Assembly (NCBI RefSeq): GCF_024223415.1
Contig: NZ_CP100500.1
Source of the DNA: Escherichia coli
GTDB taxonomy: Bacteria; Pseudomonadota; Gammaproteobacteria; Enterobacterales; Enterobacteriaceae
Direction: 5' to 3' (one strand)
Length of the DNA: 64,000 nt
In this document: piece after piece, positions 23,698-25,179 of the stretch
How positions within the stretch are numbered: position 1 is the first letter of the stretch
Layout: each line of letters starts with the position of its first letter
The notes under the pieces: generated by a model
Told to the model about the DNA's origin: nothing
Databases searched by the model: none
Seen by the model: the letters and a program-made list of their open reading frames with translations, nothing else
Made by a program: the position numbers and the translations under genes

Positions 23698-24963
23698 TCA
23701 CCTTTTCAGTGGATTGTTAACTTTTGCATATTCAAACGGACTGATACACTCCTCCCTGTTTGCATCCAGAAAATCTGCCCACCATTGCAGCATAAGCCGA
23801 CGTTCTTCCAGATGTTCTGCTTTATGAATATACGCGGCACGTACTCCGTTGCGCTCCTGATGACTCATCTGACGTTCAACCGCATCTCTTGACCATAAGC
23901 CGGATTCAATCAATGCACTGCACGCCATCGCCCGGAATCCATGGCCACAGACTTCCTTGGTTGTGTCATACCCCATCACTCTGAGGGCCTTATTTACGGT
24001 ATTTTCACTGATTGGTTTACGCGGGTCATGTGCTCCCGTAAAGATCAGACCATTTTCACCAGCCCATGTCTGAAGTTCTGTCAGTATGGCTACAGCCTGT
24101 TTGCTGAGTGGCACAAGATGTGGTGTTCGCATCTTGGAGCCCCGGTGTGAGAATTTTACCCCTGGCAGAGGTTTGCGTTCGGCTGGAATAGTCCATATTG
24201 AATTGTCAATATCAATTTCAGCCCAGCGGGCATATCTGAGTTCACTGGAGCGAATAAAAACCAGTAAATTCAGCATAACAGCAAGCCGGGTGACAGGCTG
24301 ACCTTTATAACTGTTAATACGCGACAGAAGTTCAGGCAGACGTGAAAGATCAAGAGCGGGGCGATGCTGTCGTTTTACAGAGGTCAATGCGCCAGCCATA
24401 TCCAGAGCAGGATTATATCTGATGATGCCAGACTGTACGGCATAACGCATTACAGCAGATATTCTTTGCTGCAGACGACTGGCGATTTCATAAATTTGTT
24501 TAGCTTCTGCAGCACGAACAGGGATAAGCAGGTCCGGGGTATTGAGTGTTGTGATGTTCCGGTTGCCGATAAAGGGGAAAACGTGTGTTTCGAGGCTTTT
24601 GAGTACCTTATCGCTGTGTGATTGTGCCCATTGTTTATTACTGGCATGCCAGCGTCGTGCAATATGTTCAAAAGAGAGTTGTAAATCAGGGACTACTTTT
24701 TTAGCTCTTTTCTGTTCGCAAGGGTCAATCCCCTCCGAAATCAGTTTTCGGGCCTCATCCCGTTTTGTACGAGCTTCGGAGAGAGAAACCTCCGGGTATA
24801 CACCAAGTGCCAGAGTTTTCTCCTTACCCAGAATGCGATAACGGAGACGCCAGTAACGGGAACCATTAGGATGTACCAGCAGGAACATGCCAGCCCCGTC
24901 AGTGAGTTTATAAGCCTTGTCAGTGTGCTTTGCAGCCCGGATTTTTGCGTCAGTCAGTGCCAT
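23698..24963 (-). CDS. int: P4-type tyrosine integrase
   Basis: 421 aa; N-terminal MALTDAKIRAAK...GSRYWRLRYR typical of P4-like integrases; C-terminal catalytic region (...HGFRAMACS...RQMSH...AYIH...); adjacent to the tRNA-Phe 3'-end repeat. Confidence 0.9.
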   Translation of the reverse strand: MALTDAKIRAAKHTDKAYKLTDGAGMFLLVHPNGSRYWRLRYRILGKEKTLALGVYPEVSLSEARTKRDEARKLISEGIDPCEQKRAKKVVPDLQLSFEHIARRWHASNKQWAQSHSDKVLKSLETHVFPFIGNRNITTLNTPDLLIPVRAAEAKQIYEIASRLQQRISAVMRYAVQSGIIRYNPALDMAGALTSVKRQHRPALDLSRLPELLSRINSYKGQPVTRLAVMLNLLVFIRSSELRYARWAEIDIDNSIWTIPAERKPLPGVKFSHRGSKMRTPHLVPLSKQAVAILTELQTWAGENGLIFTGAHDPRKPISENTVNKALRVMGYDTTKEVCGHGFRAMACSALIESGLWSRDAVERQMSHQERNGVRAAYIHKAEHLEERRLMLQWWADFLDANREECISPFEYAKVNNPLKR

Positions 24964-25126
24964 AGTTCAGCCTTCTGAATGCGTTAAAGAGGGTACAAAT
25001 TCTGTCGAACTGGGGTATACCCGCAATTATACCCACACAATGGGGTTGATGTGGGGGGAGTCTGGTTGAGTTCGGTAGAATTGATTTGGCGGCAGGACGC
25101 TTAAATCGTGGCGTCCTGAAACGAAA

Positions 25127-25150
25127 AACGGACCTCCGTGGAGGTCCGTT
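25127..25150 (-). terminator. hairpin terminator (tRNA-type) next to the att repeat
   Basis: Perfect inverted repeat aacggacctcc/ggaggtccgtt followed on the minus strand by a T-run; a second hairpin caggacgc...gcgtcctg at 25092-25118. Confidence 0.5.
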
Positions 25151-25160
25151 TATATGAATT

Positions 25161-25179
25161 TGGTGCCCGGACTCGGAAT
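25161..25179 (-). repeat. 19-bp copy of the tRNA-Phe 3' end (island attachment-site repeat); not an intact tRNA
   Basis: tggtgcccggactcggaat is the reverse complement of ATTCCGAGTCCGGGCACCA, the 3' terminus of enterobacterial tRNA-Phe (pheV/pheU); the sequence diverges beyond 19 nt. Confidence 0.7.

Follow-up and report, generated by a model that had tools for sequence, protein, structure and literature searches.

In a 64-kb stretch of Escherichia coli DNA, referred to below as the window, the gene for a P4-type integrase stands beside a 19-bp copy of the 3' end of tRNA-Phe, and parDE and a CP4-like gene module lie on the other side of this copy. The locus raises the question of how a bare tRNA end came to lie between an integrase and the genes of an island end. 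The site is very probably (probability about 0.9) an internal junction of tandem genomic islands at a tRNA-Phe gene, which is pheV in the closest relative. The island on the ParDE side is termed tRNA-proximal here, and the island on the integrase side is termed distal. The array in the window's own genome was reconstructed from relatives; the window itself holds neither the tRNA, nor the proximal integrase, nor the far repeat of the distal island.

The sequence TGGTGCCCGGACTCGGAAT (25161-25179) is the reverse complement of the 3'-terminal 19 nt of E. coli tRNA-Phe. Read on the minus strand, on which this core attachment sequence lies, it is ATTCCGAGTCCGGGCACCA. The 76-nt tRNA-Phe query was checked and is identical at 76/76 positions to the annotated tRNA-Phe of strain 135. 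An earlier note on this DNA, made from the sequence alone, had described an exact tRNA-Phe 3' end that diverges after 19 nt, and this description is correct: the following positions 25180-25183 read AAAA in the window against CGAA in the tRNA, and the match can be counted as 19/19 exact or as 21/23. The same note found no intact tRNA in the window, in agreement with ARAGORN, which detected no tRNA gene in the 64 kb. A second copy of the core was not found in the 64-kb window, neither over 19 nt with up to three mismatches (chance expectation 0.01) nor over 23 nt with up to four errors including indels. Of the direct repeats that flank islands, the window has one core copy.

The integrase of the distal island (23698..24963, minus strand) is a P4-type tyrosine integrase of 421 aa, identified by its Pfam domains, its motifs and its neighbours in other genomes. 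Its ORF starts 198 bp from the core, which refines the earlier estimate of about 200 bp, and lies on the same strand as and downstream of the tRNA-end copy. The N-terminal arm-binding domain (Arm-DNA-bind_3, PF13356, 3e-29, residues 3-88), the central SAM-like domain (Phage_int_M, PF22022, 2.3e-27, residues 98-192) and the C-terminal tyrosine recombinase domain (Phage_integrase, PF00589, 1.5e-17, residues 208-383) are all present in Pfam searches. The NCBIfam model PRK09692 matches over the full length with 7.6e-74, at 248.8 bits and below its curated cut-off of 434. The motifs IRSSELR, SKMRTPH, HGFRAM, MSHQER and AAYIH are found at residues 237, 276, 341, 366 and 376, respectively, and the catalytic R, K, HxxR, H and Y were assigned within them by eye, without structural alignment. 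Relatives of the integrase are 420-421 aa long. With the full P4-type domain set and the catalytic motifs, the enzyme is predicted to be intact. The integrase resembles that of satellite phage P4 and Sf6 Int in domain architecture and in its targeting of a tRNA 3' end. Sf6 Int is a distant relative, sharing about 35% identity with the window integrase, and unlike in P4 and Sf6, P4 or phage structural and replication genes are absent here. A tblastn search of the 64-kb window revealed no other integrase or integrase remnant.

The interval between core and integrase (24964..25160, minus strand) is an island-borne leader, as judged by a terminator scan, folding and its identity to single-island loci. 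It contains a canonical intrinsic terminator (25126-25151, minus strand), whose 11-bp stem precedes UUUUUCGUUU, and folding shows another hairpin at 25093-25118 (minus strand). The terminator hairpin begins 9 nt past the core and carries a U-tail on the minus strand; in single-island genomes, the distance between the CCA of tRNA-Phe and the leader terminator is likewise 9 nt. Hairpin 25151-25126 was the sole terminator-like site in the scan. Hairpins beside the repeat had been reported earlier, and two stable ones are indeed present, the first of them terminator-like, with a combined folding energy of -32.5 kcal/mol and a z-score of -6.35. A further hairpin on the ParE side (~25236-25259) was considered as a terminator and discarded, because its minus strand lacks a U-tail and its z-score of about -1.5 is not significant. 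A sigma-70 promoter scan of the integrase leader gave no result.

The origin of this leader becomes apparent when it is compared with other loci. It is 100% identical to the leader by pheU in strain 135, and a 337-nt query combining leader and tRNA has a 100% match by pheV in ZLWT. The leader is also conserved by K-12 pheU, along with the integrase remnant yjdQ. The K-12 pheU terminator and about 200 bp downstream, including the yjdQ remnant (1692-2127 of the extracted K-12 locus), correspond to the window leader 24964-25160. Because the same leader occurs in the window and by pheV in ZLWT, the seemingly native pheU terminator of K-12 is island-derived. The leader and its terminator are found at pheU, at pheV and at the internal junction, and hence travel with the integrase; the leader is therefore part of the island, and it substitutes for the tRNA's own terminator once the island has integrated. 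The hairpin by the core can thus be assigned to the distal island, and it is this hairpin that takes the place of the native tRNA terminator in single-island genomes. At the junction described here, the leader terminator is left behind the ParDE operon.

The distal-island cargo inside the window (2010..23697, minus strand) is collinear with that of GF60, with 99.3% identity over 2010-25000. Among its genes are those for a TPR protein (22399-23472), for an S6-family autotransporter protease, or SPATE, which is intact with 1274 aa (7669-11493, plus strand), and, two genes from the integrase, for a phosphoethanolamine transferase (20538-22040, plus strand). The remaining cargo comprises an outer membrane protein, PhoX, IS66/IS3 remnants, an AbgT transporter and a glycerophosphodiesterase. 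The cargo seen in the window also follows the integrase by intact pheU in strain 135 and by pheV in ZLWT. In strain 135 the SPATE gene is present as two ORFs. The island phosphoethanolamine transferase is distant from the CptA, EptA and MCR models, with a best E-value of 2e-30 that is far under the cut-offs. The far end of the distal island and its far repeat fall outside the window, and no excisionase gene was seen in the portion of the island that the window covers.

On the other side of the core, the last genes of the tRNA-proximal island are the parDE pair. ParE (25422-25739, minus strand) is assigned by the NCBIfam RelE/ParE model and ParD (25736-25999, minus strand) by NCBIfam TIGR02606 with 1.9e-28; the RefSeq annotations of GF60 and AR_0085 agree. 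The pair is followed by a CP4-like terminal module (26068..32482, minus strand) with 99.1% identity to AR_0085, in which the gene names are those of the GF60 annotation. The module extends from a GTPase gene (31598-32482, minus strand) to a DUF4942 gene (26068-26934, minus strand), and between them are encoded DUF932, an antirestriction protein, RadC, DUF987, a YeeU/CbeA-type antitoxin, a CbtA-family toxin, DUF5983 and DUF957. The earlier note had placed parDE and a cbtA/cbeA module across the repeat from the integrase, and ParE, ParD, DUF4942 and CbtA/YeeU were all found there on the minus strand.

Further proximal-island content (32583..48115, plus strand) is collinear with GF60. It encodes a hypothetical protein, YfjJ/Gp2-like proteins, an acyltransferase, a hydrolase, YfjI, an AlpA-family regulator, a UvrD-like helicase and Rpn. 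The AlpA-family regulator (~43170-43367) was recognised by an AlpA-like C-terminus in the ORF translation; it is the only AlpA-family gene seen and lies on the proximal-island side. The UvrD-like helicase gene (44212-47057, plus strand) is split into adjacent ORFs of 377 aa and 571 aa, and its GF60 counterpart is annotated as frameshifted. A short-period repeat tract whose translation repeats HSITLSLY occupies 40759-41140, in the non-coding DNA that separates the YfjI gene from the second Gp2-like gene. From the core to the right end of the window, neither an integrase nor a tRNA was found. The DNA right of the core is mosaic, and the AlpA/YfjI/YfjJ module is opposite in strand to the terminal module, a layout that is kept in P19_598, in MS8345 and in a second GF60 copy.

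This side of the junction shares several features with the K-12 elements CP4-57, CP4-44 and CP4-6, namely the gene string GTPase-DUF932-antirestriction-RadC-DUF987-YeeU/CbtA-DUF4942 and the homologues of AlpA, YfjI and YfjJ. Unlike in these elements, the target here is tRNA-Phe and not ssrA or another site, parDE follows DUF4942, and the AlpA/YfjI module is on the strand opposite to that of the terminal module. The proximal "island" may be a decayed remnant instead of one discrete element, because the AR_0085 terminal module is joined to a truncated integrative and conjugative element (ICE) by IS66, because the region is mosaic, and because it diverges from GF60 beyond ~50 kb.

The two sides of the core were traced in a set of 5426 complete E. 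coli genomes. The alignment of the window with ZLWT covers 21059-25179 with 98.5% identity and stops at 25179, and the alignment with AR_0085 covers 25161-32000 with 99.1% identity and starts at 25161. The two overlap by exactly the 19-bp core. The flanks of the internal core match two different single-island configurations, and the switch between them is located inside the core. ZLWT, which is ATCC 25922-like, carries an intact pheV on the yqgA-speC side, followed by the leader, the integrase, the same 1044-nt TPR-like gene and the phosphoethanolamine transferase. Strain 135 carries the same integrase and leader by an intact pheU, on the dicD-dsbD side. In AR_0085, the order is CP4 module, ParDE, 19-bp core, the native pheV terminator as in K-12 (AAAAACCCGCCTTGTGGGCGGGTTCTT), IS110 fragment and kpsF. 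The homology switches at both edges of the core, which is the signature of site-specific recombination and differs from what one would expect deletion, IS activity or homologous exchange to leave. The suggestion in the earlier note that the repeat is an island end shared with a second integrase-bearing island holds, as both single-island configurations exist and the switches sit at the core edges.

AR_0085 was also considered as a clean reference for the proximal island alone. It was not retained in this role, as its terminal module is fused via IS66 to the truncated ICE, and it supports the attR end only.

The comparison also bears on whether the junction could be the product of a rearrangement, that is, of homologous or IS-mediated recombination between pheU and pheV islands or of a deletion that truncated a tRNA-Phe gene. 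The region is IS-rich and mosaic, and this integrase with its leader is found at pheU as well as at pheV. However, the 19-bp core exactly delimits both homology switches, the junction contains no IS, and AR_0085 has the ParDE-core end as a genuine terminal attR. The length of the repeat equals that of a reported GI-pheV attR (PMC11537424), and a precise crossover core is not expected from random deletion or IS events. A rearrangement is thus very improbable. The earlier note had left open "tandem or rearranged islands"; the tandem part stands, and the rearranged part is dropped, as no rearrangement is needed.

The frequency of the individual parts was determined in the same genome set. A query that joins the 5' part of the integrase gene to the leader and the complete tRNA-Phe reaches at least 80% coverage in 3456/5426 genomes, a count that includes K-12-like genomes in which only the integrase remnant yjdQ survives by pheU; the identity is 100% in many. 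The junction is present in 202 of the 5426 genomes, which is 43% of the 472 genomes with a ParDE-type island end. In these 202 genomes, the block TPR-int-core-ParDE-DUF4942 occurs as a unit, with an identity of ~90% in most of them and with varying cargo beyond it. The whole window is covered by none of the 5426 genomes. An artefact, in which an assembler misjoined two tRNA-Phe loci, or a chance 19-mer would also place a tRNA end at this position, and repeated island modules can mislead assemblers. Against this, the 202 genomes with the junction were assembled independently, and shuffle statistics give a chance expectation of 0.01 even with three mismatches. The probability of either is close to nil.

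GF60 is the genome closest to the window from 2010 to ~50000. Its identity is 99.4% over 23000-27000, across the junction, and 98.7% over 25100-50000, setting aside the extra IS copies of GF60. Bases 1-1474 and the part beyond ~50 kb match other loci. The intact tRNA-Phe gene and further copies of the repeat, which the earlier note proposed to locate, were looked for and are present in GF60: pheV lies 147 kb from the junction, on the side predicted by the tandem model, and three more direct copies of the tRNA-Phe end accompany the internal one.

Read from pheV on the minus strand, the GF60 array begins with yqgA and pheV, the latter with a variant 3' half, followed by a SPI-7-type ICE of ~87 kb. 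A partial tRNA-Phe copy of ~48 nt then precedes a second P4-type integrase, which is 41% identical to the window integrase, and an island of ~60 kb that ends in a CP4-like module and ParDE. Next come the 19-bp core and the window's integrase, which heads an island of ~65 kb ending in another CP4-like module. The array closes with a core copy that matches at 22/23 positions with a 1-nt deletion, the native pheV terminator, the IS110 fragment and kpsF. The four tRNA-Phe-end copies are all in direct orientation and delimit three elements, each with its own integrase at its head. The 19-bp copy and the 22/23 copy next to the native pheV terminator form the two boundaries of the distal island.

In the GF60 pheV gene (28715-28790 of the extracted locus), the 3' half (…GTCGGTGGTTCGATTCCGCCTCCGGGCACCA) is a variant whose T-stem changes are compensatory; it was apparently supplied by the integrated SPI-7-type ICE. 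In the displaced copy at GF60 1036458, ~48 nt of the tRNA remain, and these differ from the native gene at two positions.

From these comparisons, the following course of events is proposed. It is established that P4-type island integrases recombine the attP of an island with the tRNA 3' end, here that of tRNA-Phe, so that either end of the inserted island carries a copy of the crossover core, which is 19 bp long in this case. If two islands with the same core are present at one tRNA gene, the middle copy is both the attR of the proximal island and the attL of the distal one. The core at 25161-25179 is accordingly best described as a putative hybrid att site. It would terminate the tRNA-proximal CP4-like island, which ends in CbtA/YeeU-DUF4942-ParDE, and begin the distal island, which would start with the terminator leader, int, TPR and phosphoethanolamine transferase and continue to the SPATE. 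The tRNA body would remain with the first copy, outside the window at higher coordinates and on the minus strand, which would explain why the internal copy has none. We infer that the junction arose by integrase-catalysed recombination in this lineage and that the distal island could still be excised via the core in the window and the far repeat.

The order in which the islands arrived was also sought in the sequence, but both orders leave an identical junction, whether the proximal island entered the tRNA upstream of a distal island already in place or the distal island entered the attR of a proximal one already in place. Of the earlier claim that the end of one island was reused as the attachment site of a second, the shared boundary is retained and the implied order is not.

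The conservation of the junction block in other genomes raises the matter of its age. Because the TPR-int-core-ParDE block is common to many genomes at ~90% identity, the junction may be old and may have spread by homologous recombination, instead of reflecting a recent integration. A stronger form of this idea holds that the islands fused long ago, that they are inherited or transferred as one block and that the internal core is inactive. The block TPR-int-core-ParDE-DUF4942 is kept in the 202 genomes with differing cargo beyond it, and the missing excisionase gene in the window part of the distal island also fits an inactive core. The core is nevertheless perfect at 19/19 positions, the integrase has an intact ORF that keeps every catalytic motif, and the leader and its counterpart in single-island loci share 100% identity. 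An inactive junction is a serious possibility, though one to be held with less than even confidence, and it is compatible with the tandem-island reading because it concerns present activity and not origin.

Under the tandem-island reading, two further properties of the junction can be envisaged. The bare 19-bp core may be a competent secondary attB for the integrase, or both islands may excise together as a composite; this proposal is rather doubtful. If the core were a secondary attB, the distal island would have integrated into the end of another island and could excise from it. If the composite were real, a CP4-like remnant could accrete to, and be transferred together with, an island carrying a SPATE and a phosphoethanolamine transferase.

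At the left end of the window, bases 1-1474 match an accessory segment with genes for DUF523/DUF1722 and DUF3833 proteins. This segment is rare, occurring in only 35/5426 complete E. coli genomes, and GF60 has it at a quite different locus. The first 2 kb of the window have a G+C content of ~65%, and bases 1475-2009 gave no match. These observations suggest another mosaic joint at the left window end (1-2010). An inverted repeat of 0.5 kb with 85.6% identity (4294-4791 and 53035-53528) is located in YebF-family regions that flank the junction. Inversion between the two islands might take place at this repeat.

Comparable islands and arrays are well known. GI-pheV islands carry intP4 and attR repeats of 19 or 23 bp (Nhu et al. 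2024, PMC11537424), and in EHEC strain 12009 the LEE is located beyond the GI-pheV attR (PMC11537424). Islands of the PAI-pheV and PAI-pheU type have been described as well (PMC7545054). The locus resembles GI-pheV and GI-pheU in the P4-type integrase directly downstream of tRNA-Phe sequence, in the 19- or 23-bp direct repeat of the tRNA 3' end as attR, in the modular cargo with a "yee"/CP4-like module at the distal end, and in the kps genes beyond the island at pheV. Unlike in those islands, the window integrase adjoins the end of another island and not a tRNA. In tandem arrays, either of the restored cores can take a second element (Mageeney et al. 2020, PMC7192596). With such arrays at one attB, the present case shares the common crossover core, the internal copies without the body of the target gene and, as in GF60, an integrase of its own at the start of each segment (PMC7192596). 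Nothing essential differs, except that the proximal element is decayed and mosaic here and has its integrase outside the window. Both the phenomenon and this junction are already found in the literature and in RefSeq genomes, and the arrangement is an ordinary, well-documented one.

For the organism, the 19-bp fragment would mark the exact boundary of two islands within a large mosaic region. In annotation, it should be taken neither for a broken tRNA gene nor for a misassembly. The integrase would be part of the island with the SPATE and the phosphoethanolamine transferase and not of the CbtA/ParDE module, and the hairpin beside the core would be a tRNA terminator supplied by the island. The locus thus probably adds one more case in which pheV/pheU serves as a stacking site for virulence and fitness islands, and no new mechanism is implied.
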